A stretch of DNA of 64,000 nucleotides. Source: a virus (lineage: Duplodnaviria; Heunggongvirae; Uroviricota; Caudoviricetes). Position 1 is the first letter of the stretch. Every line of letters begins with the position of its first letter. This document shows, one piece after another, positions 1-25,511 of the stretch. Below the pieces are notes generated by a model. It did not search any database. It saw only the letters and a list, made by a program, of their open reading frames with translations, and was not told the origin of the DNA. The position numbers were made by a program, and so were the translations under genes. The stretch lies in IMG/VR virus record IMGVR_UViG_3300017705_000602; one strand, written 5' to 3'.

Positions 1-57
1 GACTTGTTGATGCCACAAAACACGTTTGATCACTTACCGGATGAAGCAGACTATTAA
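1..57 (+). CDS. 3' end of a hypothetical gene (truncated by the window edge)
   Basis: Frame 1 is open (DLLMPQNTFDHLPDEADY) to TAA at 55-57, just before the next promoter. Confidence 0.4.
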   Translation, partial: DLLMPQNTFDHLPDEADY

Positions 58-70
58 GGCAAAAAAGGTG

Positions 71-116
71 TTGACAACAGTTGGCACCTGTCGTATAATA
101 GCTTTAACAGTTAGGA
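71..116 (+). promoter_or_regulatory. Early sigma70 promoter plus ACAGTTAGGA leader
   Basis: TTGACA(71-76)-17 nt-TATAAT(94-99); AACAGTTAGGA at 106-116. Confidence 0.9.
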
Positions 117-129
117 AAAGGCGAAACAC

Positions 130-333
130 ATGTTACAGTATTGCGATTACATTGCGGCGCAGGCTCAACAAGCGATCAAACAGGATCCTGAGAGCTTACT
201 GAAAGAAACAGGCGCTGTCAAGCTTGACTTGCACCCACAAGAAGGGTACTTGCAGAGCACAACAAAGACCGTTGAAGTTACCGACAAGTATGGACAGCGA
301 TATCGTGTAACTGTAGAGGCAGTAGACGCCTAA
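130..333 (+). CDS. Hypothetical early protein (67 aa)
   Basis: ORF directly behind the promoter with an AAGG SD. Confidence 0.8.
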   Translation: MLQYCDYIAAQAQQAIKQDPESLLKETGAVKLDLHPQEGYLQSTTKTVEVTDKYGQRYRVTVEAVDA

Positions 334-488
334 AACGAAGTTTAGCGATCTGCCCCGGCTACACGCTAGCAACTACGCAGTCTGTACAAGAGGCAAATCC
401 AGAATTGAACCAATACGTGGCGATTAGTACGTTGGTACTGGTCCGGTTCGATTAACGGCATTTTAAATGAAGTATAACATTATAAAGG

Positions 489-516
489 TTGACATAACAC
501 ACAAACACTGTATAAT
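489..516 (+). promoter_or_regulatory. sigma70 promoter driving sRNA-1
   Basis: TTGACA(489-494)-16 nt-TATAAT(511-516); no credible ORF downstream. Confidence 0.8.
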
Positions 517-522
517 GTATGT

Positions 523-727
523 AACACAATTTAAAGATTTATTAGTGCTGGGTACAAGTTTTCATGTTGTTCCTTTTAGTTAGCACCAATTGTTGTTAGG
601 TCATGTACCCAGCACTAATAGATTTTAAAGAATACTACCGGCAAGTGCTCTTGCCAATTGTGTCTCCTGATAGCGAGTTGGCTATCATCCTAACTGTTAG
701 GGGTCCTTCGGGGCCCCGCCTCCTTTT
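523..727 (+). ncRNA. Putative multi-hairpin antisense sRNA (sRNA-1, ~205 nt)
   Basis: 17-bp perfect stem 540-556/604-620; hairpins 640-655 and 668-687; C(UUCG)G hairpin 700-717 followed by CCUCCUUUU; unpaired parts are complementary to SD/start and leader motifs. Confidence 0.7.
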
Positions 728-746
728 ACAAATCCTCAAAAAATGG

Positions 747-790
747 TTGCATTCTGTTCTGCTCCTGCTATACTGTACACACAGTTAGGA
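747..790 (+). promoter_or_regulatory. Early sigma70 promoter plus ACAGTTAGGA leader
   Basis: TTGCAT(747-752)-16 nt-TATACT(769-774); ACAGTTAGGA at 781-790. Confidence 0.8.
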
Positions 791-804
791 ACAAGGAGCA
801 ACAC

Positions 805-1029
805 ATGCAACACACAAATCATTTCGCGCAAGACACAGACGTAACTTATTACGGTTCTGTTGTAGGCTACGACTTTTACATGACGGACGACAACATTGTG
901 CTGATCCAGTTTGGTGAGCAAGAACAGGAGTACATGTCTATGTCACTTGAGTCGGCTCGACGCATTGAACAGCACCATTATCGTGCCGCTGTTATGTTGT
1001 GGGACTTACACCAACAAAAGGTTGCATAA
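805..1029 (+). CDS. Hypothetical early protein (74 aa)
   Basis: AAGGAG SD and own promoter. Confidence 0.8.
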   Translation: MQHTNHFAQDTDVTYYGSVVGYDFYMTDDNIVLIQFGEQEQEYMSMSLESARRIEQHHYRAAVMLWDLHQQKVA

Positions 1030-1066
1030 CGCAGCCTTTTTTCTTATAATGTACACACAGTTAGGA
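1022..1066 (+). promoter_or_regulatory. Early sigma70 promoter plus ACAGTTAGGA leader
   Basis: TTGCAT(1022-1027)-17 nt-TATAAT(1045-1050); ACAGTTAGGA at 1057-1066. Confidence 0.85.
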
Positions 1067-1080
1067 ACAAGGAACCGCAC

Positions 1081-1296
1081 ATGAAAGACTACGTTAACCA
1101 GGCAGCACCCAAGCAAGAAAACAAGATTGTTACCATGATATTCTTTTCAATAGCCATGTTTGGCATGTTCATGTTTCTTGGTGTTGTTACTATAGCAACT
1201 GTGAGCACAGCAAGCGATAACACCGTGAACGCAGGCATTGCAGGTGCCGTGATGTTTGTGATAGGAACCATTGCAGGTTGGAACCGAAAAACATGA
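1081..1296 (+). CDS. Small two-TM membrane protein (71 aa)
   Basis: AAGGA SD; two hydrophobic segments. Confidence 0.8.
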   Translation: MKDYVNQAAPKQENKIVTMIFFSIAMFGMFMFLGVVTIATVSTASDNTVNAGIAGAVMFVIGTIAGWNRKT

Positions 1297-1297
1297 G

Positions 1298-1326
1298 TTG
1301 ACAACAACGCAACAACATGTTACCAT
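1298..1326 (+). promoter_or_regulatory. sigma70 promoter
   Basis: TTGACA(1298-1303)-17 nt-TACCAT(1321-1326). Confidence 0.7.
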
Positions 1327-1350
1327 GCACACTCACAAGGAGATAAGTGC

Positions 1351-1611
1351 ATGGACGAACTGTTAGAACACATCGGTGAGCTGAACGTAATGAAAAAGCT
1401 GACCGGTGATTACATTTTTTATTCACAGGAAGCTGAGTATTGGAAATCACAAAAGGTCGAGTCTGTCAAGGACTTTGAACACTGGCAAGCCAAGCAAGAG
1501 TACGAACGAACATATCGTGCCCTTGGCCACAGAGGTTACTTGCCAATAGATCCCGATGCATACACAGCTGAACAACTACAACAACAAACGCGAGCAATGA
1601 CACAAGGATAG
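1351..1611 (+). CDS. Hypothetical protein (86 aa)
   Basis: AAGGAG SD and own promoter. Confidence 0.8.
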   Translation: MDELLEHIGELNVMKKLTGDYIFYSQEAEYWKSQKVESVKDFEHWQAKQEYERTYRALGHRGYLPIDPDAYTAEQLQQQTRAMTQG

Positions 1612-1615
1612 CACA

Positions 1616-2062
1616 ATGGAAAACTTCAACTTCGAAGTACTCGACAGCGATCAAATTGACATCAACGGCACTGTTATCGATTTGCACACAGTCCCGCAAA
1701 ACAGATTGGACACCATGCAAGCCAGGTATTCGAACAAGGCGGGCAGTGATGCCGACTGGGAAAGCGGTGGATACTATGCGGCAGCTCTTGAGGCCATTGA
1801 GCGAGTTCAAGCACATCGAGTTGAATTTCCTGAAGTGACCAAGGACCCCGAAGACTTGTTGGCCATAGCTAAATCCAAGCAGGTAGACGAGACCGTGATA
1901 TGTCCGCAATGCAAAACTCCATTTGTCAAGACACAATCACAACAGACTTTTTGTTCAAACGGCCGAGGTGACAGTCAAGGCAACTGCAAGGATCGATACT
2001 GGAACCTGCACTCACCTGCACGCAAACAAAGACTTGACAACATTCACGAGAACTATGTATGA
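1616..2062 (+). CDS. Hypothetical protein with C-terminal zinc finger
   Basis: CPQC...FCS...CKDRYWN cysteine pattern; AAGGA SD. Confidence 0.75.
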   Translation: MENFNFEVLDSDQIDINGTVIDLHTVPQNRLDTMQARYSNKAGSDADWESGGYYAAALEAIERVQAHRVEFPEVTKDPEDLLAIAKSKQVDETVICPQCKTPFVKTQSQQTFCSNGRGDSQGNCKDRYWNLHSPARKQRLDNIHENYV

Positions 2063-2301
2063 AAGACAGTACAAAAGGATTTGTGGCATTTGCCATGTTT
2101 GCATTATCGGTAACCATGTGCTTGCTCAGCTTTAACAGCATTCTTGGATTCATGTGCGGCATAGTTGCACTGGTCCTGATCGGTAACGGACGCATGCAAG
2201 ACTGGGCTGACATAGGGCAGTTTATAACTCCACGTGTGTTCACTTTCATTGTGTTGCTGTCAGGTACACTGTTAGTGATCGGACAGTCACTAAATACGTA
2301 A
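2059..2301 (+). CDS. Small membrane protein (80 aa)
   Basis: ATGA overlap with the upstream gene; three hydrophobic segments. Confidence 0.75.
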   Translation: MKDSTKGFVAFAMFALSVTMCLLSFNSILGFMCGIVALVLIGNGRMQDWADIGQFITPRVFTFIVLLSGTLLVIGQSLNT

Positions 2302-2322
2302 AAATAAAACGAGTATAACACA

Positions 2323-2565
2323 ATGATGGAAATAGAAAAACACGAAGTGATATTTTTCACTCACAACAAACGCAAGTACGCCAGGTTCCCCGATTGCGAA
2401 TGGTTTCGCAAGAGCAAGAAAGGAAACTGGAAGCAATTGGACGAACACGACACTGATCTGATCGAAAATCGTTATCGCGCAGTCAAGCGTGAGATGCGCA
2501 AGAACTTTCTAAAAGAACTTGAATTCTTCTCAGGTTGGAGACCAAAAGACAAAGACAAAGATTAG
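2323..2565 (+). CDS. Basic hypothetical protein (80 aa)
   Basis: ORF tiles the region on the dominant strand. Confidence 0.7.
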   Translation: MMEIEKHEVIFFTHNKRKYARFPDCEWFRKSKKGNWKQLDEHDTDLIENRYRAVKREMRKNFLKELEFFSGWRPKDKDKD

Positions 2566-2566
2566 G

Positions 2567-2595
2567 TTGACACCTGGTCAGTCAGTTGCTATTAT
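2567..2595 (+). promoter_or_regulatory. sigma70 promoter driving sRNA-2
   Basis: TTGACA(2567-2572)-17 nt-TATTAT(2590-2595). Confidence 0.8.
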
Positions 2596-2600
2596 AGTGA

Positions 2601-2728
2601 CAGTGTTAGCGCACAGCAAGGTGTTGTTAAGTCCTCGCCTTGTACTACTTGATTGTCAAAGTCATCACCCCCAACCGATGACCCTTCATGTACAATCGCA
2701 GGCTTGCAGAAATGTAAGCCTTTTTTTT
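2601..2728 (+). ncRNA. Putative small structured RNA (sRNA-2, ~125 nt)
   Basis: Own promoter; hairpin 2616-2643; nested hairpin 2651-2697 with C-rich loop; intrinsic terminator 2700-2728. Confidence 0.65.
2700..2728 (+). terminator. Rho-independent terminator
   Basis: AGGCTTGCA-GAAA-TGTAAGCCT followed by a T run. Confidence 0.85.
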
Positions 2729-2755
2729 GACTTCTGTTTCTGAGCATGCTATCAT
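2727..2755 (+). promoter_or_regulatory. sigma70 promoter
   Basis: TTGACT(2727-2732)-17 nt-TATCAT(2750-2755). Confidence 0.75.
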
Positions 2756-2784
2756 ATGCACAACCAACCACTTAAGGAATCAAC

Positions 2785-3348
2785 ATGAAATACTGTATCA
2801 TGATTGTGCTGGCTGTGTTCAGTTTCAGCACACTAGCACAACAGGCACCCGAATGCAAGATCGATCCGGATTGGAAACAATCCAAAATACAAGAAACACT
2901 GGAGGCCTGTAAGCAATCGACCACGGCTGTAGTGCCACAAGCAGTAGCACAAGACGTGAGTGCGTATGCAGAAATTGCCAAAGGTGTAGCTGAAGCTATA
3001 GGTATTGCCGCACGCGAAGTAGGTGTAGCTGTAGACGAGTTTGTGAAAACAGACACAGGCAAGATGACCGTTGCACTTATAGTGTGGCACGTTGCAGGAG
3101 ATGATATCAAAGGCATGCTGTTTGGCATTCCCGGCATCTTGTTTGCAGTGTGGTTGTGGTTTACCATTGCTGCCAGACTCAAACGAACAGGTGAGTATGT
3201 TACTGTCAAGAATCGTTGGGGTCGCGAAGTGAGCGTACACAAGCTCAAGGCAGTGGCCGACTTTGATGGACCAGATGGATTCAGCTTTCTGATACTGTCC
3301 GTGTTCTGTGGCGCCATTGTGGTAGTGTGCTTGGCAAACATATTCTAA
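2785..3348 (+). CDS. Membrane protein with signal peptide (187 aa)
   Basis: MKYC...STLA signal-like N-terminus, C-terminal TM helices, AAGGA SD. Confidence 0.8.
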   Translation: MKYCIMIVLAVFSFSTLAQQAPECKIDPDWKQSKIQETLEACKQSTTAVVPQAVAQDVSAYAEIAKGVAEAIGIAAREVGVAVDEFVKTDTGKMTVALIVWHVAGDDIKGMLFGIPGILFAVWLWFTIAARLKRTGEYVTVKNRWGREVSVHKLKAVADFDGPDGFSFLILSVFCGAIVVVCLANIF

Positions 3349-3376
3349 AAACATATCACAAAAAACAAATAAAAGG

Positions 3377-3422
3377 TTGCATGGTGCAGCCTTTTTTCTT
3401 ATACTGTACACAACAGTTAGGA
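3377..3422 (+). promoter_or_regulatory. Early sigma70 promoter plus ACAGTTAGGA leader
   Basis: TTGCAT(3377-3382)-17 nt-TATACT(3400-3405); AACAGTTAGGA at 3412-3422. Confidence 0.85.
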
Positions 3423-3437
3423 AAAAGGAAAAGCAAC

Positions 3438-3662
3438 ATGTCACAAGAACTAAACCAAGTAGTAACAGAATTGAACCGTGAACGCAAGTTCGAAGGCCAT
3501 GCACCTGTAGACAGTGCTAGCAGTCAAAGGTGGGTAGTACTTGACTACATCTACGATCAGCTTGCATCTGAAACACTGTACGGCACACGCACAGCACGTC
3601 AAGCACAAAAGCGCAAGCGCGAGCTTGAGTCAGCCAAGTCACAGTTGTTGGAGCAAGCATAA
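3438..3662 (+). CDS. Hypothetical protein (74 aa, start MSQELNQ)
   Basis: ATG 3438 follows an AAGGA SD and the promoter; the ORF-track start at 3327 lies upstream of the promoter. Confidence 0.75.
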   Translation: MSQELNQVVTELNRERKFEGHAPVDSASSQRWVVLDYIYDQLASETLYGTRTARQAQKRKRELESAKSQLLEQA

Positions 3663-4171
3663 TGCCAAAGAGCAAAAGAACAACACCGGTTACACCTTGG
3701 GACCCCAGCAAGCGTGCAACAGCTCGTGTAAAGAATCCAATCCCGGTACCAACCGACTGTCCACACTGCGAAGGCACCGACATCGAGATCTGCAAGAACT
3801 CACGTGTGTATCGCGGTCGAACATATGGTGAATGGCCTTGGGTGGTCATGTGCAATACATGTTCAGCCTACGTGGGCTTGCATCCGTTTACAGGTATTCC
3901 TCTAGGCACACTGGCCGATCGCCAGACCAGAGATGCACGCAAACGAGTCAAGCAGGAATTTATTACATGGCAAGAAACCAACTGCCTGTCGCGCAACGAT
4001 GCGTACCGATTGCTGGCACAAAAGATGCGTATACCCAGCGAACAGTGTCACTTTGGCTGGTTTGATTTTGACCAATGCGATCTTGCAATGCACGCAGTAC
4101 GCAAACTGGAGCAACAGAAACGTTACCGTCCAGACTCACCTTTTGCAAAATTGAGAGAATTACTCAGTTGA
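3662..4171 (+). CDS. DUF3268-family zinc-finger protein
   Basis: CPHC...W..MCNTC.AYVGLHP.T.IPLGTLAD...SR..AY..LA..M...CH.GWFD...C pattern. Confidence 0.85.
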   Translation: MPKSKRTTPVTPWDPSKRATARVKNPIPVPTDCPHCEGTDIEICKNSRVYRGRTYGEWPWVVMCNTCSAYVGLHPFTGIPLGTLADRQTRDARKRVKQEFITWQETNCLSRNDAYRLLAQKMRIPSEQCHFGWFDFDQCDLAMHAVRKLEQQKRYRPDSPFAKLRELLS

Positions 4172-4196
4172 CAACGCCAGCCATGTGCGTTATCAT
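4168..4196 (+). promoter_or_regulatory. sigma70 promoter
   Basis: TTGACA(4168-4173)-17 nt-TATCAT(4191-4196). Confidence 0.8.
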
Positions 4197-4232
4197 GTAC
4201 ATGAAACAATATGCAATCAAAGGAATAAAAAT

Positions 4233-4709
4233 ATGACCACAGTAGCGCAATTGATTATTGAAAAGCTAACCGCAATCGAAGATCGTCTCGCACAGATTGA
4301 ACAGCGACTTGACAATCACGAAACAGCATTTTTAAACGACATTGTTGAGCCGGCCACGACTGCCACAGTTTCGGTTAAGCCCACACGCAAACGCAAAAAA
4401 GGAAACCGGCATGCCAAGCATCTTCCGCATCGCATTGCAACCAAGTTGCTGGAAGACCATGAGCTGGCCGAAAGCACTCGCAACACGTATGCCAACACAC
4501 TGCGCCGCTTGCTAGAAAACACCTGGATGGTACCAACCTTGATCAAGAAGCGTAACCAAGGCGTGCCATACGAATACATTGCTCAAGACCCACAGTTCAG
4601 CGACTACAACAGCAAGCGTCTGCAAAACATGGTCAGCGTAGGATTGCGTTATGGTGTAATCGAACGTGAGTCAGATGGCAAGTACCGCGAAGGCAACATC
4701 ACAGCATAA
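4233..4709 (+). CDS. Hypothetical protein with N-terminal coiled coil and basic patch (possible DNA binding)
   Basis: ATG 4233 after AAGGA; heptad-like LTAIEDRLAQIEQRL; KPTRKRKK. Confidence 0.75.
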   Translation: MTTVAQLIIEKLTAIEDRLAQIEQRLDNHETAFLNDIVEPATTATVSVKPTRKRKKGNRHAKHLPHRIATKLLEDHELAESTRNTYANTLRRLLENTWMVPTLIKKRNQGVPYEYIAQDPQFSDYNSKRLQNMVSVGLRYGVIERESDGKYREGNITA

Positions 4710-4767
4710 TCATGCAAGCACAGGGTTGCCACCGGGTAGCCCTGTACCAACACAAGGATAACACAAC

Positions 4768-4965
4768 ATGGTAGTAGGATCAATCTGGTGGGGCATGATT
4801 GGCATTGCACTTGCACTGTACAACAGTGTCATGCTTTATCAAAACACACAAGCCTGCATCGAAAAACCTGAACGCGCACGCAGACCATTCATGATATTCA
4901 TGCTAGTGATAGGTGCCATAACCGGCCCTGTGTTGCTAGTATACGTTGTGTACGGAATGTTATAA
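4768..4965 (+). CDS. Small two-TM membrane protein
   Basis: AAGGA SD; hydrophobic profile. Confidence 0.7.
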   Translation: MVVGSIWWGMIGIALALYNSVMLYQNTQACIEKPERARRPFMIFMLVIGAITGPVLLVYVVYGML

Positions 4966-4966
4966 C

Positions 4967-5140
4967 ATGTGGTGGGTCACTGTACTGAACGCAGTGCTCG
5001 TGGTGTTTCACGGCACCATGCTGATACACTACGCACGCAGTATGAAACAAGACAACAACGACTGGAATTGGTTTAGCTGTAACATGTCAGCGTTCTTGTT
5101 TGTAATGCTGGGCGCAAGCGTGATTGATAATATTTTTTAA
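4967..5140 (+). CDS. Small two-TM membrane protein (start MWWVTV)
   Basis: ATG 1 nt after the upstream stop; same architecture as the preceding gene. Confidence 0.65.
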   Translation: MWWVTVLNAVLVVFHGTMLIHYARSMKQDNNDWNWFSCNMSAFLFVMLGASVIDNIF

Positions 5141-5147
5141 AAAGGTG

Positions 5148-5193
5148 TTGACAAGTGTACCCGTTCAATCTATACTGTACACAACAGTTAGGA
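5148..5193 (+). promoter_or_regulatory. Early sigma70 promoter plus ACAGTTAGGA leader
   Basis: TTGACA(5148-5153)-17 nt-TATACT(5171-5176); AACAGTTAGGA at 5183-5193. Confidence 0.9.
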
Positions 5194-5206
5194 AACGGAG
5201 CAACAC

Positions 5207-5794
5207 ATGCAAATCACAAACCAAACAGCACAACAAATTGTTAACACACTAAGCAACGCAACCAACAGCATCACAGCACCACAAATTGTACAAGCATTGC
5301 GCACAGTGAAAGGTGCTACATTTGCAACGCTAACACAAGCAAGCAAAGTAAAAACAGCGGCAGCACACCGCGCACAAAACATTTACAAAATTACTGTGCA
5401 AAACGTTACACTGTGCAACAGCGATGCCAGCTTGTATTCAAACGCAGTAGCACGTGAAACTGAACAAGCGTTCACAGCCGTGCCTAGCAACTACGACATG
5501 ATTGACAACAGCTACTCAGTGTGCTCACTCAAAAGCAACCCTGCTAAACACTACCTGCGTGCTATTGTTAACCGTGCATTGCAAGTTGTTTACTATTGTG
5601 CTAACACAGACACTATTGTAAGTAAAGCACATGTTGCACAATACTTGACCAACAGCGCACGCGAGCAACTGTTAAACCCTAGCACTAGCACACACGTAGC
5701 ACACGCTGATGTTACGCACACAGTAACAGCACGCACGTTTGCATTGCAAAACATATACAGCATCAACGTTAACAAGCAAACGCTTACAGCGTAG
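5207..5794 (+). CDS. Hypothetical early protein (195 aa) with extreme compositional bias
   Basis: GGAG SD, own promoter and terminator; A/T/N/Q/V-rich with 1 Gly and no Trp. Confidence 0.85.
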   Translation: MQITNQTAQQIVNTLSNATNSITAPQIVQALRTVKGATFATLTQASKVKTAAAHRAQNIYKITVQNVTLCNSDASLYSNAVARETEQAFTAVPSNYDMIDNSYSVCSLKSNPAKHYLRAIVNRALQVVYYCANTDTIVSKAHVAQYLTNSAREQLLNPSTSTHVAHADVTHTVTARTFALQNIYSINVNKQTLTA

Positions 5795-5811
5795 CACACA
5801 CGCGCAATATG

Positions 5812-5840
5812 AGCACTGTATATCAGTACAGTGCTTTTTT
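5812..5840 (+). terminator. Rho-independent terminator
   Basis: AGCACTGTA-tatcag-TACAGTGCT followed by a T run. Confidence 0.85.
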
Positions 5841-5871
5841 GTATCCGCAAAATATCCAACCGCAAAAACGA

Positions 5872-6110
5872 CCCCTCAGCATGTAGCACAGGATTTGTCA
5901 ACCTTTTTTTGAGGGGGCGCCAACTGCGCGCCTGTTTTTTTATTCTCAAAATACCCTGGGGCAATTATCCTTGCAGACCCTGGGACAATCGTTCTGAAAA
6001 TACCCAGGTGACATTTTCTATGCTGCCGCCACTACTGTACGGAACCTTGGCTAAATCATGAACACAAAAATTTTTGCGCACATTTTTTTATGAGCACATG
6101 ACCCAGGGGC
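5872..6110. repeat. Non-coding site with ACCCWGG direct repeats and a CCCCTCA/TGAGGGG inverted repeat
   Basis: ACCCWGG at 5953, 5977, 6002 and 6101; inverted repeat 5872-5878/5910-5916. Confidence 0.7.
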
Positions 6111-12500: not shown

Positions 12501-12855
12501 TTACACCTACCAAAAACAAGCAATAGGCACCGGTGTTGGCTATACCTACATTGTTTGCAAAAACTAATTTACTTTCGTTTCCGTGACTGATTGCTTTACC
12601 GTCATGCACAATATAACAATTTCCGTCGCCGAACACTGGCATAATAATAGTGTCTTGCTCAAAGAATAAACATTGCTTTGAGCACATATAGACTAACTTG
12701 TATTCGGTACATTCGGCAATAAACGGAAATTCATGGATATCGTAAGGCTTCACTGTAAAGCGATCACTCTTTATGAGCGAGACATTTTCTTTAAACAGAG
12801 ATAACCTTAACGACTCGTGTTTGTTTGCAACATTAACGATTGCGTGTATTGCCAT
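12484..12855 (-). CDS. Hypothetical protein, possibly a degenerate cupin/2OG-oxygenase paralogue
   Basis: Overlaps both neighbours; weak similarity to the adjacent oxygenase without the metal ligands. Confidence 0.6.
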   Translation of the reverse strand: MAIHAIVNVANKHESLRLSLFKENVSLIKSDRFTVKPYDIHEFPFIAECTEYKLVYMCSKQCLFFEQDTIIMPVFGDGNCYIVHDGKAISHGNESKLVFANNVGIANTGAYCLFLVGVNATSN

Positions 12856-14050
12856 AATGTATTACTTTCACTCCAGTAATCTCAGGATGTTTTCTCCACG
12901 GGTCAACAATTACTGATCCTGGAACTGGATCAATTACTGCGTTTAATATATCTTTATCGTCATAAGTGATTGCCGAAGAATGCGCCATTAAAAAAGTGTG
13001 CGGTAAAGTTTCATCGTATGGTTCGTTATCGCGCAGATCGTCGCAGTTGTCGTCGTCGACATAATGAACTTGTGTTCCAAGTTGCTTTACGTATTCGCCT
13101 GTTAGTATACTAATAGAGCCTGCAGAATATTCAACACCCGGCTTATACGATTTGCCTACTATAACAACAGGCAATCCGTATGATACAAGTTCTTTTGCCA
13201 TGTTCTTTGCTTGCTGTTCTCGTGCAACCATGATAGCATCAAACAAGTCGTAGCCTAGATCCAGTCGGTTAGCCATTGAACGCAATGCTATATTATCGCG
13301 TGGATGACAAGCACCTCCATCGCCTAGCCCGGCTGTCATGTACTTAGGTCCGTTGATGCGGAATGTTGATTTAGCAAGTGCATCAGTTACAACATCGACA
13401 TTCATGTTTCCGTTGCGTTCTGCTACATCTTGCATCATGTTAACTAATGCTAGTTTAGAACTGATCCAGGTATTATAGAATATCTTAATGGCTTCTGCTT
13501 CGTCCCATGTGCCTACTTCGATGCGCGGATCATTTTGCATGATCGGCTTATAAAAATCAATCAGCTCTTGCGCATCACCGGTCAGCGAACCGTCTTCGGT
13601 TCCGATAATAATCATTTCGGGATTGACCATGTCGTATTCAACTGTGCCCATGGCTATTAAATAAGGGTTGTAAACGAATCTAAACGAGTCGAAATGCTTT
13701 TGAAAAATGCGTCTCACTGTACCAGGCAACACGGTACTGATAAGCACCACTAGCTGATCTTTGGTGGTATACTTTGCAATTTCCGACAACACTGTATCGG
13801 CAATTGAATAGTCAAAATCTTTTGGTTCGAGATGGCAAGTAGGATCTTTACCATCATATCTTTCGTCATGCGGAGTTGGAACAGCTACAAAAATAATATC
13901 TCTATCAGTGACACATTCTTCAATGGTCATTGCTTGCAAAAAGCGAGAATTAACGATAGCAGTGTCGTATCCGATTACATTGTAGTGCTTTGACATTTGA
14001 TAAGCACACGGTTCGCCTAGTTTCCCTATGCCAATAAATCCAACGTTCAT
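12833..14050 (-). CDS. ugd: UDP-glucose/GDP-mannose 6-dehydrogenase
   Basis: GIGKLG, VAVPTP, STVLPGT, EAIKIFYN, GGACHPRD, SYKP, DPW. Confidence 0.93.
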   Translation of the reverse strand: MNVGFIGIGKLGEPCAYQMSKHYNVIGYDTAIVNSRFLQAMTIEECVTDRDIIFVAVPTPHDERYDGKDPTCHLEPKDFDYSIADTVLSEIAKYTTKDQLVVLISTVLPGTVRRIFQKHFDSFRFVYNPYLIAMGTVEYDMVNPEMIIIGTEDGSLTGDAQELIDFYKPIMQNDPRIEVGTWDEAEAIKIFYNTWISSKLALVNMMQDVAERNGNMNVDVVTDALAKSTFRINGPKYMTAGLGDGGACHPRDNIALRSMANRLDLGYDLFDAIMVAREQQAKNMAKELVSYGLPVVIVGKSYKPGVEYSAGSISILTGEYVKQLGTQVHYVDDDNCDDLRDNEPYDETLPHTFLMAHSSAITYDDKDILNAVIDPVPGSVIVDPWRKHPEITGVKVIHYGNTRNR

Positions 14051-16399: not shown

Positions 16400-17021
16400 A
16401 AAACTCTCCCCAAATGTAATGAAAATTATGATCCCAGAACTTGTTACCGTGTAATTTTATTTGTTCAGCCGAAACACATTTCGAATTAAAGAATGTTTGC
16501 ATGTTGATATTAGACACAGCATCACTAGATGTAATAATAACTGGCATAGCATTTAGTACATCGTTATCTGTGTCTGTTGATGAAACAAAACAGATTATTT
16601 TATTACCAACTGTTAAAATAAAGTTTGTATCACGTTCGGAAATTAAATTCTTTTCAATAGAAGGATATTTGTGCAACATCGAAAGTATAGTAAAAGGACT
16701 TGTCATTGATGCTTTCGTAACTATCCGAAATCGTAACTTAAGGCTCGAATAGATATAACTGTAATGATGCTCAATTAAAAAGAAAGCATTTTTATTTTTT
16801 GCAACCACTTTAAATAGTTCATGGTCAACAGTATCAAGTAACATCTCATTAGATATATCGTTTCCTAATTTGCCTGGGTATACATAAATTGCATCGAACG
16901 TTTTTTCTTGACCTGGCAAAAACTCGCTTGCTGTTTTTATAACAAGATTTTTGTTACTTGAAAATTTGTTTACATACTCTACAAAATGGTCGTTTTGTTG
17001 CACAAGCAATAATATTTTCAT
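16380..17021 (-). CDS. Hypothetical protein, possibly a shrunken GT paralogue
   Basis: Overlaps both neighbours; remnant MPVIITS...QTFF...HN. Confidence 0.65.
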   Translation of the reverse strand: MKILLLVQQNDHFVEYVNKFSSNKNLVIKTASEFLPGQEKTFDAIYVYPGKLGNDISNEMLLDTVDHELFKVVAKNKNAFFLIEHHYSYIYSSLKLRFRIVTKASMTSPFTILSMLHKYPSIEKNLISERDTNFILTVGNKIICFVSSTDTDNDVLNAMPVIITSSDAVSNINMQTFFNSKCVSAEQIKLHGNKFWDHNFHYIWGEFYDYIQR

Positions 17022-18106
17022 GCAAATTTACTCAACAGATCGACTAGTGCTTTCTTGTAATCTTTCGAGATACAGTGCTGTCGGTTATGTTGTGTTATTG
17101 CTTGCACATGCGCTTGTTTATTATCTAGATCGTTTAGTGAAAAGTTGTCTACTTGAGATACAACCGAATCGATTCGATCGGACAATCCAATTAAGCTGTC
17201 GTATTCTTCGTCAAACAATATGTCAAATGATTTATAACCTTGCTGTTTTAAAAATCCAATCAGCCCTGGGCTACCTACCATCATAAAAGGATGCATAGAC
17301 AGTATTGCCTTGAATGTCTTTTCAGTTACAAACAACGAACCCGGTGTGTTAATCGATTCTGTTACAATTGAAAATGCAGTGTTATTGTACAATTCAACAT
17401 CGTCGAGGTACTGGTTCTGCAGACACTCTGTTAAAGTTAAGTCTATCATTACCGGATCGCTAAATGTAATTGCATGCAATTCAGCTTTTACTTTTTCCGA
17501 TGTGTTACAAGTATCTATTTCGTTTGCAACTAACTGGTCGCAATATCTATTTTTTAAATAACTTATATATCCGTCGTTGCGATTTTGCATTTTACGGAAC
17601 AGCATGGTTCTGTGTACTTTTGCAGTGCCGTTATACGAAAGAAACTTTTTAGCAGGATTAACCGATACTGTTTCTCTACCTTTGATTTTGTGAGTTGCAA
17701 TCATGTCGAAATAGAAAAACGGCTCAATTGTTAAATTGCTAGGACAGTTACGATGTGCAATTTCTCCGCACTCGCCAGTTATTATTAAAATTGATTTGTT
17801 ATGGATACCAAGGCGGTTCAATTGGAATATTTCATTCTCAATCATGCTATATGATACTGGTTCTCTCGGATAAAATAAAACCAGCTTATACTGACCAGAA
17901 AGTATTTTATCTACTTCGCAATCAAGCAACATGTCGACTAATCTACCGGTATCAAAAATATTAATTAATTCGACAATTAATAAACCAGGTTTATCAGTTG
18001 CTTGAGTATAATTTATATCATAAAAATCAAGGTAGTAAAATACCGAATCGTTATCTCGATAAGAAACATTTTGTAAGTCATTGCTTTTGCTACGAATTAG
18101 ATTCAC
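17018..18106 (-). CDS. GT10-like putative glycosyltransferase, paralogue 4
   Basis: KFLSYN..K.HR, FSIVTES, FVTEKTFKA, HPF..VG.PG, GYKSF, EEYD. Confidence 0.75.
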   Translation of the reverse strand: MNLIRSKSNDLQNVSYRDNDSVFYYLDFYDINYTQATDKPGLLIVELINIFDTGRLVDMLLDCEVDKILSGQYKLVLFYPREPVSYSMIENEIFQLNRLGIHNKSILIITGECGEIAHRNCPSNLTIEPFFYFDMIATHKIKGRETVSVNPAKKFLSYNGTAKVHRTMLFRKMQNRNDGYISYLKNRYCDQLVANEIDTCNTSEKVKAELHAITFSDPVMIDLTLTECLQNQYLDDVELYNNTAFSIVTESINTPGSLFVTEKTFKAILSMHPFMMVGSPGLIGFLKQQGYKSFDILFDEEYDSLIGLSDRIDSVVSQVDNFSLNDLDNKQAHVQAITQHNRQHCISKDYKKALVDLLSKFA

Positions 18107-19367
18107 GGTCTATTAACTCTTTGAATTCTGGAAAGATATCTGAAAAAGACTCTCTTCTTATTTGATCTAGCTCGTCTGTGTAGTTTAAAAACAGTTGCCA
18201 TTTTGCAGGGTCGTGTTCTTTTGTTCGATACAGTTGTTCTATTTCGTGCTTTTGATGACTAGACATATTTTCGCATTCGTTTATTTTGTCAATCAGTTGC
18301 GACCTTATCGATAAAGGTATAACATCCGGCGACATAAAATCAGGCCACATTACAAAATTGTGAGCTATTTCAATTGAACTGTCGTACTCGTTCCAATAGT
18401 CGTGGAACTCTTTAAGATACGGAAAGTTATATACGCTGACTGTTTGCAGTATCTTTATACGCACAGTATCGGTAGCAAGACACTGATCAACTGTTTTTAA
18501 AACTTTATCCCACTTGGTTGGGTGTCTAATATAATAGTTTCGATCTTCGATATCATCGATGCTGGCACGAATTTCAACTTCCTTAAACTGATCCCACAGT
18601 TCAAGCGCGATATCGGGGATAAGCGTCATGTTCAAGCTATACCAAATTTTAATATTTTTAGCAAATCCTTTTTCGATTAGCTTTTCCAAGAAACGCCAGT
18701 GCTGTTTGATTAACGTGGGCTCGCCGCCATTAATGTATAAACTTTCTAAGTTTTCGCATTTGTCTAGGATATCATCGTACACATTTTCATCTTCGCACCA
18801 ATCAAATGTCGACCAGTCCAGCCCTCGATACTGAGGAATAACTTTTGCACCTTCCCACTCACCGTCCTGAAGTTTTTCGTAATCTGTTTTCCATCGGTTT
18901 GAGCTTGCAGGGTTGCAAGTGCGACATTTAACATTGCATACATTGCCAAGTCTAAACTCAACAAAGCGTAAATCAGTTTTCTTTAAACTGCCGTCTTGGT
19001 TGGTGTTGTCTGCGGCTTCCGCTAACGAATAGTTAGGATATTCTCTTTGCTCTAGCAGACGTTTACTGTCTAAACCTTTGTCTTCGCGATTGTAACATCG
19101 CATGCATGCTTCGGGTTTTTCTCCTGCTAGCATTTGCTTACGAACTGTTTTAAAGTAATCGCTGTCATGTATTTCTTTAATAGTGTGCTTGCCAAGGAAT
19201 TTAATTTCTTGCTGGTCAGCACCTACAATCGATTCTTTAGTATCTTTACTGCTACTAGCATGATTGGTCATATCAGCTTCGCAACAAAGAGTAACATGCC
19301 CCATAGGGTGTGTTGCTAAATGAATCCATGGTAATACACAAAATGTTTTCTTAGGATCGTTGCTCAT
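18090..19367 (-). CDS. N-terminal twitch/SPASM-domain radical SAM protein 1
   Basis: FCVLPWIH...CC...C.RCY..E, then CNVKCRTC and GGEP. Confidence 0.92.
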   Translation of the reverse strand: MSNDPKKTFCVLPWIHLATHPMGHVTLCCEADMTNHASSSKDTKESIVGADQQEIKFLGKHTIKEIHDSDYFKTVRKQMLAGEKPEACMRCYNREDKGLDSKRLLEQREYPNYSLAEAADNTNQDGSLKKTDLRFVEFRLGNVCNVKCRTCNPASSNRWKTDYEKLQDGEWEGAKVIPQYRGLDWSTFDWCEDENVYDDILDKCENLESLYINGGEPTLIKQHWRFLEKLIEKGFAKNIKIWYSLNMTLIPDIALELWDQFKEVEIRASIDDIEDRNYYIRHPTKWDKVLKTVDQCLATDTVRIKILQTVSVYNFPYLKEFHDYWNEYDSSIEIAHNFVMWPDFMSPDVIPLSIRSQLIDKINECENMSSHQKHEIEQLYRTKEHDPAKWQLFLNYTDELDQIRRESFSDIFPEFKELIDRESNS

Positions 19368-20692
19368 TTTATCTCCTGATTCCACCAGCTAATTGCCTGA
19401 GTGTTAACTGCTAAAATTTCTTCCATTGTGATTGGTTGCTTTCTTATTCGTTCTAGTTCGACCAAGCGATGCCGACCTTCTCGAAAGCCTTCTACATAGT
19501 TATCATACTGTTCTTCGAACACTGGGCGCTTTTTCATTTCGTGTAATGTGTCTATGTACACTTGTGTTTTGCGCGTAACACGTGGTTCCATATACTCGAG
19601 CAGTTCGTCGATAATATTGTCTAACACATCGCGTGGCATAGACATGGGCGACATCAGCACGGTGCTGTCAAAAGAAAATGTTATTTTTAAATATGTTTTT
19701 ACATCAAGCTCTTGAGCAAGGTCAAACATAGACTTTAGTGAAAACAGTCCTGGCATGGTCAGTGTTACATCGAACACTATTGCATCTTCGCCAAACTGCT
19801 CTTTCAAGAAAAGACCTTGTTTAAAATTGTCAAGCCATTTATCCCAGTTGAGACCACTGCGTATGTATTCACCTATAGCGCCACTTCCGTCAATACTGGC
19901 ACATAAATTTACTCGCTTAAAGTGCGGAAGCAATTCATACAACTGCGAGTCTTTGCGACTGAGACGATTAAGATTGGTGTTGTATCTCACAACTACATTT
20001 TTAGAATGTCCACTGTCGACCAGTTGTTGCATTACAGTCCAGTGCTTTTCCCACATTAATGGTTCGCCGCCCACCCAATATAATTCTTCGACAGTTTCGT
20101 TATCTACTGCTTGCTGTAATTCGTCTTCGAGCACATTCTCCTGGAAGTCTCGGATAGGTATACGTAGCTCGGGAGCCATCCACTTGTCAAATTTAGGATC
20201 CCACATGCCATGCTTTCGTTTTTCGGCTTCCCAGCTTGAGCTCAGTTGTTCTCCGCACATGCGACACTTGAAATCACAACGATTACTTAAACGATAATCA
20301 AAGCTGATAGGGTCAAGTGTAGTGTGGCCATCTGCAGAAGTACTTTCGTAAATCTTGTCAATGTATTGAGGAAACAGTGTCTGCGTGAAGTAGTTTCGGT
20401 AAGTGTGCAAATTTAAAACTTGGTTGTTGCAAACTTCGCACTGGGGTATTTTTTCGCCTGCTATGATTCGGCGGCGAATATCTTTCATGTATTCTGAATT
20501 CCAGTGCTCGCTTAATGTTGCCGGATCGAATACATCTGTTTTTGTGCCTGAGTCAGCATCAATGTACTGTCGTTGAAAAGACGCATCCTCCCTGCTTGCA
20601 CAACACAATCGTCTTTCGCCTTGCGGGCTAACATACGTGTGTGTCCAAGGTGCAGTACAAAAAACATCAGGTATTGTGTTTGGTTTCTCCAT
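19364..20692 (-). CDS. N-terminal twitch/SPASM-domain radical SAM protein 2
   Basis: FCTAPWTH...CC...CEVC; CDFKCRMC; GGEP; YNTN. Confidence 0.92.
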   Translation of the reverse strand: MEKPNTIPDVFCTAPWTHTYVSPQGERRLCCASREDASFQRQYIDADSGTKTDVFDPATLSEHWNSEYMKDIRRRIIAGEKIPQCEVCNNQVLNLHTYRNYFTQTLFPQYIDKIYESTSADGHTTLDPISFDYRLSNRCDFKCRMCGEQLSSSWEAEKRKHGMWDPKFDKWMAPELRIPIRDFQENVLEDELQQAVDNETVEELYWVGGEPLMWEKHWTVMQQLVDSGHSKNVVVRYNTNLNRLSRKDSQLYELLPHFKRVNLCASIDGSGAIGEYIRSGLNWDKWLDNFKQGLFLKEQFGEDAIVFDVTLTMPGLFSLKSMFDLAQELDVKTYLKITFSFDSTVLMSPMSMPRDVLDNIIDELLEYMEPRVTRKTQVYIDTLHEMKKRPVFEEQYDNYVEGFREGRHRLVELERIRKQPITMEEILAVNTQAISWWNQEIK

Positions 20693-21878
20693 AAATGTAT
20701 TCTTTTAACTCCGGAAACGTTGATGCAAAATCTTCGTTTCTAAATTCGTCTAAGTTGTGTGTTATATCATTAAACGCAATAAGCTCTTGTGATAATCCTG
20801 GCGTGTTAACATATTCGCGTATTTCGTTAAGCGATCGTTTAGCTGATTCGTACTTGAATTGATGTGCATTATACATTTTTTCAATACGTTCAATTAATAC
20901 TTGCTTGGCAGCCAGTGGCAAGTTTTTAATGTTGTAGTGAGATGGATGATACAGCATGTTGAAATAAATTTCAAGATTGTTATCTTCGGCCCATAGTACA
21001 AACTCGCAGATGTCAAGCACGTTCAGTATATTTACTGTATGGCAAACTTGTAGCACAATATTATCGAACTCGCGAAATCTCATGATGTTGCTTTCGACAG
21101 TTTGCCATTTCGAACCGTGTCGTTGATATTCAAACTTTTTGCCTAGTGCATCAATACTGAGCATGATTTCCACGCGCTTGAATTTGGTCCATACTTCGTG
21201 CAAGATTTCGTCCGATGGTAAAATCGTACCGTTGGTGTTGTAATGTATTGCAATGTCAGACACATCAGCTTGCTCAGTAAGCAGTTTCAAAAAGCGATAA
21301 TGCTCTTTGATCAACAAAGGATCGCCACCTGCAAAGTCTATCTGAACAACATTGTCAACATACTGCAACAAGTCTGCCCAGAACTCTGGGTAGTCTTCTG
21401 CCCATCGACTGTTTGCAAGATAATAGTCAATCGTGTCTTCGTCAGCTAGCTTTAATGCCTTTGCATCTTTTGCCCACTTGATACTGTTCTCGTATGTGCA
21501 TATACGGCACTTTAAATTGCAAATCGACCCTAGTTTTAAGTCGAAATAGATGGGATTTTCCTCACTAACTACCTCGTAGCTATGCTCTGGTGCATAGAAT
21601 CGGTCTAGGTCGTTAATACGCTTGCTTTTCATGCCACCGTCTTCTAAATCCCAGCAGTATCGGCATTCGTCGGGTCGTTCGTTGTTGAGAAACTTTGTTC
21701 GCAACGATTGCATGTTTTTAGAGTTCCATACATCGCCGACTGTTACGCCTTCTGATATATGTGTCTTGCCATCGTCGCGTTCAATTTTGCCCTGATACAA
21801 ACAGCATGCCCTAAAAGTTCCATCTGTTTCGGCACTAAGGTGTACCCAAGGCAGAACACAGAAATTACTTTTAGACAT
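20667..21878 (-). CDS. N-terminal twitch/SPASM-domain radical SAM protein 3
   Basis: FCVLPWVH...CC...CRYCW; CNLKCRIC; GGDP; YNTNG. Confidence 0.92.
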   Translation of the reverse strand: MSKSNFCVLPWVHLSAETDGTFRACCLYQGKIERDDGKTHISEGVTVGDVWNSKNMQSLRTKFLNNERPDECRYCWDLEDGGMKSKRINDLDRFYAPEHSYEVVSEENPIYFDLKLGSICNLKCRICTYENSIKWAKDAKALKLADEDTIDYYLANSRWAEDYPEFWADLLQYVDNVVQIDFAGGDPLLIKEHYRFLKLLTEQADVSDIAIHYNTNGTILPSDEILHEVWTKFKRVEIMLSIDALGKKFEYQRHGSKWQTVESNIMRFREFDNIVLQVCHTVNILNVLDICEFVLWAEDNNLEIYFNMLYHPSHYNIKNLPLAAKQVLIERIEKMYNAHQFKYESAKRSLNEIREYVNTPGLSQELIAFNDITHNLDEFRNEDFASTFPELKEYIYGETKHNT

Positions 21879-23085
21879 TCTGATCCTTGTATTTTAACAT
21901 TGGCTCAAGTTCCGGGAATGCTGACAAAAAGTCTTCTTTGCGTATATCGTCAAGTGCATTGTTGCGTTCAAAGAACTCCGGGATCAAATGTGTGTCGTCT
22001 CTACTGTTCATGTAGTCAACAACACTCATTAATCGATTGCTTTCTCTGTATTCCATTGGAATTTGCTGTAGCATACGTTCGTACTTTTTAGTTATACGCT
22101 CTTTGATTTCGGGAGGTAAAATAGTTAAACTCAAATGAGCAGGATAATGCAATATGTTGATATTAATTGCTTCCCAGTGAATATACCCTTTGTTTAACCA
22201 ATCTAAGTAAAAGTCAGGTAGATGCCAGCCGTTATAAAGAGATACAGTTGCCGCAACAAAAAAAGAAACGTGCGGACATTTTTCTTGTAGTTGTCTTCGG
22301 TTTTCTTCTATCTTGGCCCAGTTGGTTCCGTGTCGCATATATTCAGCACGAGGGCCAGAATCATCTAAACTTGCACCTACATTTACATCTGGAAACTTTG
22401 ACCAGAGATCAAATACATCGCGGCCTTTGAAACGCATTTTACTAAAGTTAGTGTTGTACACCAAGCGTACATCTGTTTTACCTTTAGCAATTAAGTATTC
22501 GAGTATTTCGTAATGTTCAACCGCAACTAAGGGCTCGCCGCCCGCAAAGTATATTTCTTCCACATGCGGCAGTATCTTGTCTAGGTTGGCCCACAGTTCT
22601 TGTTCTGTTTCGAAAGGCTTTTGTATTCTTTCGCCATCTGCTGAACCGTATAAAATAACTTGATCATCGTACCAAAGTGAACTCAACGACGGCCCACAAC
22701 TGCGACATTTGAAGTTACAAATATTACTGAATCGAATATCCATGTAACGTATCTTCATTTCAGGATGATGCCCATCTTCCGCTGTTTTGCGTGTCGACGT
22801 CATGCGATGCCCGAACTTTTGATTCATGTCTTGTCGCATACTAAATGAGCCATGCTCTTCTAGTTTGTAACAGCGTTCGCATGTTTTACTTGGCTGTCCT
22901 TTTAGCATGTTTTTTCGTAGCTTGCGCATGCGCTCACCGTTCCATACATCTTCCATTGACTCAGTTTTTACGTTGCCAAATGGATCTTCGGATGGTGAAG
23001 TACAGCAAGGGTATATGTTACCATTTGGCCACATGTGCATGTGAATCCACGGCGCCATACAAAAATGCTTGTTTGGTTCTTCCAT
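21871..23085 (-). CDS. N-terminal twitch/SPASM-domain radical SAM protein 4
   Basis: FCMAPWIH...PCC...CERCY; CNFKCRSC; GGEP. Confidence 0.92.
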   Translation of the reverse strand: MEEPNKHFCMAPWIHMHMWPNGNIYPCCTSPSEDPFGNVKTESMEDVWNGERMRKLRKNMLKGQPSKTCERCYKLEEHGSFSMRQDMNQKFGHRMTSTRKTAEDGHHPEMKIRYMDIRFSNICNFKCRSCGPSLSSLWYDDQVILYGSADGERIQKPFETEQELWANLDKILPHVEEIYFAGGEPLVAVEHYEILEYLIAKGKTDVRLVYNTNFSKMRFKGRDVFDLWSKFPDVNVGASLDDSGPRAEYMRHGTNWAKIEENRRQLQEKCPHVSFFVAATVSLYNGWHLPDFYLDWLNKGYIHWEAININILHYPAHLSLTILPPEIKERITKKYERMLQQIPMEYRESNRLMSVVDYMNSRDDTHLIPEFFERNNALDDIRKEDFLSAFPELEPMLKYKDQNV

Positions 23086-23849
23086 TATAATCCTTTTAAG
23101 AATGCTGTAACAGCTTGTTCAGCAAACATACGTTGATATTTGTTATGCGGATGCATGCCTTCAGGAATGTCATCGCCGAGGTCTCTACAAAACTCTCGCA
23201 AGCCCTGTATGATATTTTCATCGTTAATATCGGCACCATTGTATTCCCACCAAGTGCCCCGGTCTACTAAATCGTGCAAGTATTCAGTCTCTGGGTAAGT
23301 TGCAGTTAACAGCTCGTGGTCCCATGCTTTAAAGTTCATGAGCGGAATACTGTTTGCTTTACAAAAGTTTTGCAGTAACAACACCGAATGCATCGAATCA
23401 ATGTACTGATTAACATTGCTGTGACAATGCCCGAAATACATTTCCATTAACTGATCAATGTGCTTGTTTTCAAACGTCCAATGTCCGTAGCCCCCGGTGC
23501 TTTTTAACCAAGCAGAGTATTTAGTATCTCCATCGCATAAAAAATTAGTTACTTTATGGTCGTGTGTCTTCTCAACTTTCTTTACTTCGGAAAACATCGG
23601 ATGAGTCTGATCAAAGTGAAATTCAAATCGTGTAGGTTCGCTCCATCCGACCACAAGCACTGTATCTTCGAAACTAGTTTGTTTGCTCAGTTGATACAGT
23701 GCATTTCTAGCTATCATAGTGTTACTTGAACCCATTTCTGCGCAAACAGTAACGTTATACGCAGATTTGTCTAAATGGTATGGCCAAGCAAGATATTCAT
23801 CGATGCAATGAAACGTATATGAGTCTCCTGCACAAATTACATTTTTCAC
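23085..23849 (-). CDS. SGNH/GDSL-like protein (possible O-acyltransferase or esterase)
   Basis: N-terminal GDSYT, G.SN..I.R, C-terminal xxHP. Confidence 0.65.
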   Translation of the reverse strand: MKNVICAGDSYTFHCIDEYLAWPYHLDKSAYNVTVCAEMGSSNTMIARNALYQLSKQTSFEDTVLVVGWSEPTRFEFHFDQTHPMFSEVKKVEKTHDHKVTNFLCDGDTKYSAWLKSTGGYGHWTFENKHIDQLMEMYFGHCHSNVNQYIDSMHSVLLLQNFCKANSIPLMNFKAWDHELLTATYPETEYLHDLVDRGTWWEYNGADINDENIIQGLREFCRDLGDDIPEGMHPHNKYQRMFAEQAVTAFLKGL

Positions 23850-25510: not shown

Positions 25511-25511
25511 A

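Follow-up and report, generated by a model that had tools for sequence, protein, structure and literature searches.

A candidate anti-leader small RNA among the early cassettes of a marine phage

We studied a stretch of 64,000 nucleotides of viral DNA (IMG/VR record IMGVR_UViG_3300017705_000602; "the window" below means this whole stretch). Near its left end, at positions 489 to 727, a perfect consensus promoter is followed by about 200 nt of strongly folded sequence that does not keep a protein-coding frame. The question that this locus raises is what its transcript would be for. An earlier reading of the letters by a model (the sequence-only reading) had proposed a modular antisense RNA whose unpaired segments target early mRNA leaders and ribosome-binding sites, and all of its coordinates and strings matched the sequence. 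Our own favoured answer, held tentatively and with a little less than even confidence, is that the unit encodes a trans-acting anti-leader small RNA (sRNA) that would pair with the leader shared by the phage's own early mRNAs. The argument starts from an unpaired segment of the predicted RNA, 688-698, which is the exact complement of the sequence with which these leaders begin.

The promoter-to-hairpin unit

The unit was dissected by promoter matching and RNA folding, and the following elements were predicted in it, given here with their strand (MFE, minimum free energy structure; SD, Shine-Dalgarno sequence; PeSL, a type of promoter/stem-loop cassette, see below):

489-516, + strand: predicted sigma-70-type promoter (TTGACA 489-494, 16-nt spacer, TATAAT 511-516; 12 of 12 consensus positions)
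524-531 with 656-663, + strand: closing helix (its 5' arm is 524-531), in both MFE and centroid structures
534-626, + strand: long hairpin with a 23-bp stem (534-556/604-626) and a 47-nt apical loop (557-603)
560-577, + strand: anti-start segment TTTCATGTTGTTCCTTTT (RNA UUUCAUGUUGUUCCUUUU) in the apical loop, complement of SD, spacer, AUG and AAA
640-655, + strand: hairpin 2, GGCAAG UGCU CUUGCC
664-668, + strand: free anti-SD segment CUCCU, unpaired in the MFE, 5' of hairpin 3
668-687, + strand: hairpin 3, 7 bp and a 6-nt loop, between the two anti-leader segments
688-698, + strand: anti-leader segment UCCUAACUGUU, exact complement of AACAGTTAGGA, unpaired in the MFE
700-727, + strand: terminator-type hairpin GGGGUCC-UUCG-GGGCCCC, then GCCTCCTTTT (RNA GCCUCCUUUU), forming a PeSL-like composite with the promoter at 745-775

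The promoter was called by its match to the consensus. By spacing from it the RNA would start at about 523-524, and with its end placed at about 727 the predicted transcript has about 205 nt and five helices: the four stems of the sequence-only reading were all present, and the helix that closes 524-531 with 656-663 was added to them. The MFE of 522-730 was -74.2 kcal/mol, compared with -47.8 +/- 4.2 in 200 dinucleotide shuffles (z -6.34), none of which was as stable, and the region upstream of the promoter (334-490) showed no unusual structure (z -0.42). Two G.U pairs in the long stem, G536.U624 and U539.G621, become A.C mismatches on the opposite strand; together with a third in the terminator they work only on the + strand, and the minus strand folded with an MFE of -65.0 kcal/mol, 9 kcal/mol weaker. 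Within the window the arms of the long stem were found at this one place, so that the inverted repeat does not belong to a mobile element present there in several copies, and the 23 bp of this stem make it a candidate substrate of RNase III.

The segments left free by the fold were the apical loop, positions 627-639, CUCC(U) at 664-668 and UCCUAACUGUUA at 688-699. In the linker 659-668, TGTGTCTCCT, the UGUGU part paired with the RNA's own 5' end in the MFE, CUCC(U) being left free. The UUCG hairpin at 700-717, followed by GCCTCCTTTT, was found as had been described, but the supposed resemblance of what follows to the anti-SD end of 16S rRNA came down to CCUCCUUUU, a generic anti-SD-like string within a weak terminator tail. 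The U run there is only 4 nt long and begins 6 nt 3' of the terminator stem, so the long 3' U tail of Hfq-type RNAs is missing, its place being taken by four U displaced from the stem. The sequence CCTAAC-T-GTTAGG at 689-701 is a near-palindrome to which the anti-leader segment and the start of the terminator stem both contribute; in principle two RNA molecules could pair through it (12 bp with a central U.U), which may be incidental.

The one open reading frame (ORF) within the RNA, 603-788 (61 amino acids), crosses the terminator and the next promoter and is frameshifted in a variant strain by a 1-nt deletion at 643; the unit has no maintained protein-coding frame. Searches for known RNAs gave no tRNA, and none of 4227 Rfam families, the C4 antisense RNA included, matched window positions 1-6000 at E<=5. 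The consensus promoter of the sequence-only reading and its want of a described family were confirmed, and the unit is a discrete one, from promoter to hairpin, with no credible ORF. Neither the unit nor the region upstream of it had a paralogue within the 64-kb window. Pattern scans of IMG/VR returned 25 loci for the loop 18-mer, 10 for the leader motif and 8 for the two-flank pattern, all of them chance matches, for which BLAST gave nothing outside the pattern or nothing whatever; the stem pattern had no IMG/VR locus and six unrelated bacterial loci in genome contigs, without BLAST match. A metagenome scan yielded a single related contig, L044, which comes from a variant strain and begins within the RNA at 551. 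There was no RNA run among the 23 runs that contained the stretch.

Complementarity to the shared early leaders

The first ~10 kb of the window are a + strand run of small genes behind strong sigma-70-type promoters, and most of these early ORFs were without family in Pfam and PHROG scans. Five of them (genes 130, 805, 1081, 3438 and 5207) have in common a leader starting (A)ACAGTTAGGA directly after the -10 box; by spacing, this motif would form the extreme 5' end of the mRNA. On the + strand ACAGTTAGGA was found exactly at 107, 781, 1057, 3413 and 5184, and the 11-mer AACAGTTAGGA at 106, 3412 and 5183. On the minus strand the motif occurred once in the 64 kb, at 688-697, with no other antisense site even at one mismatch. 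When up to one mismatch was allowed there were nine matches, as many as in none of 100 shuffles. By these counts the complementarity of 688-698 to the leaders, which is exact at the leader sites as the earlier reading had stated, is clearly not a chance one.

Scans of the 64 kb for duplexes with whole segments gave long interrupted junk duplexes only. In their place we used cofolding of the whole RNA with 41-nt start regions and an accessibility-plus-duplex score (energies in kcal/mol); in both, the windows for the starts 8672 and 9644 were offset by 1 nt, with no material effect, and the loop-shuffle test below was exact. The apical loop was scored separately because RNAcofold cannot represent hairpin-loop pairing. 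The predicted targets were as follows:

106-129, + strand: leader of gene 130; cofold -15.2
781-804, + strand: leader of gene 805, ACAGUUAGGAACAAGGAGCAACAC; cofold -14.8; would start at the predicted mRNA 5' end
1057-1080, + strand: leader of gene 1081; cofold -16.2, loop -14.7
3412-3437, + strand: leader of gene 3438; cofold -17.4, loop -15.1
5183-5206, + strand: leader of gene 5207; cofold -15.7
2774-2790, + strand: start region of gene 2785, AAGGAAUCAACAUGAAA, target of the loop; 16 pairs with one bulged U, -16.4

The cofold energies of the five motif leaders ran from -14.8 to -17.4, in each case through 664-668 and 688-697, those of the 17 other early starts from -1.6 to -9.4, and those of 23 late starts were no stronger than -10.3; of 400 random sense windows, 4 attained -14.8, some of them possibly the leaders themselves. 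In the predicted complex with each motif leader, 688-697 pairs with ACAGUUAGGA and 664-668 with the SD (AGGAG or AAGGA) three bases on; in that of gene 805, for instance, 10 bp with 688-697 are followed by an unpaired ACA and by 5 bp with 664-668. Hairpin 668-687 is kept in the predicted complex, giving a three-way junction in which the mRNA is covered from base 1 to the end of the SD.

The apical loop gave a second, less specific set of contacts. Its accessibility-plus-duplex energies, with both RNAs charged, were -16.4 for the start of gene 2785, -15.1 for 3438, -15.0 for 9644 and -14.7 for 1081. In a shuffle test in which bulges were allowed and target accessibility was charged, the four best early starts had a mean of -18.2 against the loop; 100 shuffled loops had -12.2 +/- 1.6, and none reached the native value. 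The site at 2774-2790 was unchanged in the variant strain, its intergenic region having 4 substitutions in 54 nt. With whole-RNA scores, early starts were separated from random windows (p=1.6e-7) and from late starts (p=0.024). Late starts also outscored random windows (p=1.7e-5), so that part of the loop signal is generic anti-SD/anti-AUG character.

Strain variation and the early cassette array

Genes of T4-like jumbo-myophage type were recognised in the window with PHROGs, namely those of a 1242-amino-acid baseplate wedge protein, a 3413-amino-acid virion protein, a late sigma factor and nuclease subunits of gp46/47 type. Pseudomonas phage PA5oct and its kin have a baseplate protein with 42% identity to the one encoded here. 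The window comes from an uncultured jumbo myophage of marine origin, with PA5oct a distant relative. Neither a near (window 1-6000) nor a distant (340-800) nucleotide search gave a match among 50,697 phage records, and the stretch was present, whole or partial, in DNA runs of 16 marine or seawater metagenome studies.

The contig L044, aligned from 551 on, covers 177 nt of the RNA, where it differs by a single 1-nt deletion and by no substitution; in the 2102 aligned nt outside the RNA it has 85 substitutions (4.0%; Fisher p=0.0015), the divergence per gene ranging from 1.5 to 8.9%. The deletion, at 643, leaves hairpin 2 formed, as a 5-bp hairpin. Variant contigs from four runs of different studies (X8/X10 type, X9, X13 and X15) placed substitution sites upstream of the RNA at 391, 413, 421, 422, 443 and 451 and downstream of it at 756 and 761; one strain variant carried A504G in the promoter spacer. 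Within 523-727 only the deletion at 643 and an A607G of depth 2.4 were seen, and the latter turns the pair U553-A607 into U.G and thus keeps it. Polymorphic substitution sites therefore stood at 0/205 in the RNA and 8/193 in the flanks (p=0.003; p=0.017 counting A607G). It is chiefly this comparison of strains that speaks for constraint on the whole of the transcribed sequence.

The early region also presented a PeSL-type feature, that is, strong sigma-70-like promoters joined to stem-loop terminators and repeated among ORFans. The stem-loops at 1016-1040 and 3371-3395 enclose the -35 box within the stem and are followed by the -10 box, and the hairpin 700-717 with the promoter 745-775 makes a similar composite. 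The PeSL cassettes of T4-type phages have the same promoter/stem-loop architecture, as far as the excerpts of PMC2839356 and PMC4122927 describe it. In L044 (reverse strand), one small gene more, equipped with a promoter and a ACAGTTAGGA leader of its own, separates the RNA unit from gene 805; it appears as 284 extra alignment columns between the counterparts of window positions 780 and 781 and is a case of PeSL-like modular shuffling. In a contig of run X9 the flanks match 392-441 and 725-791, and 442-724 is swapped for 300 other letters; the stretch replaced is exactly the promoter, the RNA and the hairpin. The depths of the X9 replacement contig (11.8) and of the main contig (11.9) were nearly equal and the former is therefore maybe a paralogous locus of the same genome; in any case the replacement may be a paralogous or an alternative cassette.

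The depth of contigs over the -10 box and leader (768-818) pointed to further copies. Summed over 772-805 it exceeded the flanks ~20-fold in X9 and X13, 7-fold in X15 and 3-fold in X11, and at position 780 it was 227 (X8) and 258 (X10) over a baseline of 8-14. Many different sequences stood downstream of the leader in these contigs, and variants at a share of >=10%, present in the -10 box and in the SD spacer, were absent inside 781-790. This suggests several to about twenty cassettes with the invariant motif in the genome, many of them outside the window, a rough estimate in which the depth may include relatives.

A second ORF-less unit was noted at 2567-2728, where a promoter TTGACA-17-TATTAT (11/12) precedes ~130 nt with a folding energy of -38 kcal/mol (z -3.4); its terminator, at 2700-2721, is a good one and has a run of 8 T. 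In contrast to the first unit, this one differs among strains, by 8 substitutions and 2 indel columns over 165 nt (a divergence of 4.8% in L044), and the changes in its terminator and inner hairpin retain pairing via G.U. It may be another small RNA.

Competing readings, known systems and other genes

If the unit is a trans-acting anti-leader sRNA, UCCUAACUGU and CUCCU, unpaired on either side of hairpin 668-687, would clamp the target mRNAs by their first ~18 nt into the three-way junction, from the 5' end through the SD; binding of the 30S subunit would be blocked, and the clamped mRNA would probably be exposed to decay. The apical loop 557-603, being anti-SD/anti-AUG in sequence, would make a further contact or serve for other early starts, e.g., that of gene 2785, and a cut of the 23-bp stem by RNase III could release it. 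The net effect would be a coordinated damping or shut-off of an early regulon of PeSL-like cassettes. A bolder version, which we think rather unlikely, makes this one sRNA a master brake of the whole early programme: at most about 20 PeSL-type transcripts with the same ten bases would be clamped at their 5' end and SD, the loop freed by RNase III would serve as second guide, and the RNA would be the counterpart of the T4 protein RegB (see below), with the leader as both recombination handle and address tag.

Several points weigh against the anti-leader sRNA. The RNA and its two ends, at about 523 and about 727, are ones that we infer. Its relatives were found at strain level only, no distant homologue having turned up, and since the RNA is invariant among them, neither a compensatory stem change nor co-variation of guide and leader was seen. 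The multi-guide tuning of early mRNAs put forward by the sequence-only reading is partly supported, in that specific pairing is predicted with the five ACAGTTAGGA leaders and the loop beat 100 of 100 shuffles. In L044 the leader of the gene-1081 homologue even has T1062C within the motif, with the RNA unchanged. The identity of the RNA could derive in part from a recent recombination sweep in a mosaic region, and the neighbouring 1297-1350 likewise had 0/54 changes. The replacement in X9 shows that the unit is dispensable or exchangeable. Two of the proposed guides fared unevenly: the loop segment 560-577 does find its 16 pairs with one bulge at 2774-2790, but its targets are gapped ones, the ungapped matches (3, with 1.44 expected) including no good target and being within chance; in the linker 659-668 CUCCU is free and anti-SD, but half of the linker is paired inside the RNA and its complement AGGAGACACA had no exact target in the window, and 5 matches at <=1 mismatch with 3.35 expected. 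The RNA and its targets are under the same kind of early promoter, which leaves the timing logic of a shut-off unclear. The short, displaced U run makes the efficiency of the terminator uncertain and read-through into gene 805 possible. Lastly, the minus strand of the unit is itself leader-like (AACAGTTAGGA, hairpin, AGGAGACACAATTG), so that the complementarity could be inherited from a cassette duplicated in inverted orientation and need not reflect selection for pairing.

The likeliest alternative, although we consider it improbable, is a selected, structured non-coding RNA with another role (protein-binding or decoy, processed by RNase III, or regulating mRNAs of the host or of a competitor phage), in which the anti-leader strings are relics of an inverted early cassette. 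Such an RNA would suit a conservation that spans all 205 nt, stems and loops, and not just the anti-leader segments; it would suit the strong structure as well, and the advantage of late starts over random windows, as the three anti-SD-like pyrimidine tracts (570-577, 664-668 and 719-723) would pair with almost any ribosome-binding site. It agrees less well with the position of the 10/11-nt anti-leader and of CUCCU, exactly in the unpaired flanks of a hairpin, with the clean separation by these segments of the five motif leaders from every other start, or with the want of a match to any known RNA family.

The uncertain terminator bears on a second alternative, a cis element. With read-through from the promoter at 489, positions 523-780 would be a long structured 5' untranslated region controlling or insulating gene 805 via pairing with the leader 85 nt downstream, in line with the short, displaced U tract and with the complementarity of 688-698 and CUCCU to 781-798 on the same strand. 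However, gene 805 has its own promoter at 745-775, starting at the leader; when 523-840 was folded, the anti-leader remained free and the leader found local partners; the variant strain has a different gene after an unchanged unit; and the X9 replacement stops at 724, the end of the hairpin tail. We give this explanation little chance.

The sequence-only reading had itself named the possibility that the segments are remnants of an inverted early-gene start. In this form the unit would have no function: one or two early promoter-leader cassettes would have been copied in inverted orientation and have decayed, and the copy would lie behind a promoter by chance. The region is a recombination-prone cassette array of the kind treated in the excerpt of PMC2839356, and the minus-strand pieces do follow the order of a leader (AACAGTTAGGA at 698-688, AGGAGACACAATTG at 668-655, AAAAGGAACAACATGAAA at 577-560). 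Yet a relic should drift at the rate of its neighbours or faster, and 0/205 sites against 8/193 in the flanks and 4% in genes fit a decaying relic poorly. The promoter is a perfect consensus, the G.U pairs of the stems work solely on the + strand, the tiny minus-strand frames are not maintained (one is shifted by the deletion at 643) and no minus-strand promoter lies upstream, and we hold a mere remnant to be just as doubtful as the cis element.

An element acting as DNA, either a protein-binding palindrome or a promoter-primed replication origin such as oriF and oriG of T4, is very improbable: a 23-bp inverted repeat does lie directly 3' of a strong promoter, and 689-701 is nearly palindromic, but as DNA the repeat has its imperfections exactly where the + strand RNA has the two G.U pairs, the fold is strand-asymmetric, and four separate hairpins plus a closing helix are unexpected for an operator or an origin.

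For an anti-leader sRNA, precedents of mechanism exist. The c4 RNA of phages P1 and P7 and the CI RNA of P4 are small structured phage RNAs in which two separated unpaired segments repress ribosome-binding or leader regions in trans; they belong to temperate-phage immunity and are processed from the same transcript as their target, and each acts on one operon. The likeness lies in the use of short unpaired segments against leader or ribosome-binding regions, which here is predicted. Unlike them, the unit has a consensus promoter of its own and lies in the early part of a T4-like jumbo myophage genome, and its targets would be many separate transcripts that carry a repeated leader. It falls outside the C4 antisense RNA family, whose Rfam model it did not match, and outside an immunity operon of C4 type, having its own promoter in a genome of T4-like jumbo myophage type. 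In the bacterial Spot 42 and GcvB and in the two-site OxyS-fhlA complex, an sRNA pairs through several unstructured regions and prevents translation by acting at the ribosome-binding site or close to it. sRNAs of the Spot 42/GcvB type are chromosomal and Hfq-dependent, with long U tails and diverse targets, whereas the RNA described here has a 4-U tail and is matched to one repeated leader.

PeSLs are presented as transcription and recombination elements in the excerpts of PMC2839356 and PMC4122927. The array studied here resembles them in architecture, with powerful sigma-70-like promoters as well as stem-loops (including GGGG...CCCC at 700-717) flanking small ORFans, and in that the strain differences are insertions or replacements at cassettes (L044, X9). 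In contrast, the cassettes here share the invariant transcribed ACAGTTAGGA, and the cargo of one cassette is non-coding and antisense to the motif; an RNA complementary to the cassette leader is not described for PeSLs in the same excerpts. RegB of T4, made from an early promoter, inactivates many early mRNAs at the SD and helps to end early protein synthesis, according to the excerpt of PMC3014915, and on that account is a functional analogue of the proposed role. RegB, however, is a protein, a nuclease that together with ribosomal protein S1 recognises GGAG, whereas RNA-RNA pairing to a longer, phage-specific leader is predicted here. Among phage-encoded trans-acting sRNAs, LPR1/PreS of lambda acts on host genes (excerpt of bioRxiv 10.1101/2024.10.31.621285), and the others, in the excerpts of a review, have host mRNAs as their targets or belong to temperate phages or prophages (PMC12197685). 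All are alike to the present candidate as phage-encoded trans-acting sRNAs, and in these partial sources, as in the literature excerpts as a whole, no sRNA matched to the shared early leader of a lytic-type phage was found.

Were the anti-leader sRNA real, RNA-RNA pairing would have a part in setting the early-to-middle switch in a large lytic phage, a single RNA would address a family of messages via their common leader, and the conserved transcribed part of promoter/stem-loop cassettes would gain a function beyond recombination. Such a self-directed regulon would join the short list of lytic-phage sRNAs, and two guides flanking a hairpin would be a compact design for multiplex repression.

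Other genes of the window were noted in passing. The early protein encoded at 3662-4171 clearly contains a zinc-finger domain, DUF3268 (E 7e-33), while its likeness to the restriction-alleviation protein Lar is weak and sub-threshold, and it had no locus in IMG/VR; by these similarities it may have an anti-restriction function. On the minus strand, the region 17018-27957 encodes at least four proteins that match radical SAM (18090-19385, 19364-20692, 23846-25510 and 26548-27957), and a homologue of UDP-glucose dehydrogenase lies at 12833-14050, ~4 kb from this cluster. Such a block is an unusual accessory set for a phage and perhaps serves nucleotide, sugar or peptide modification.

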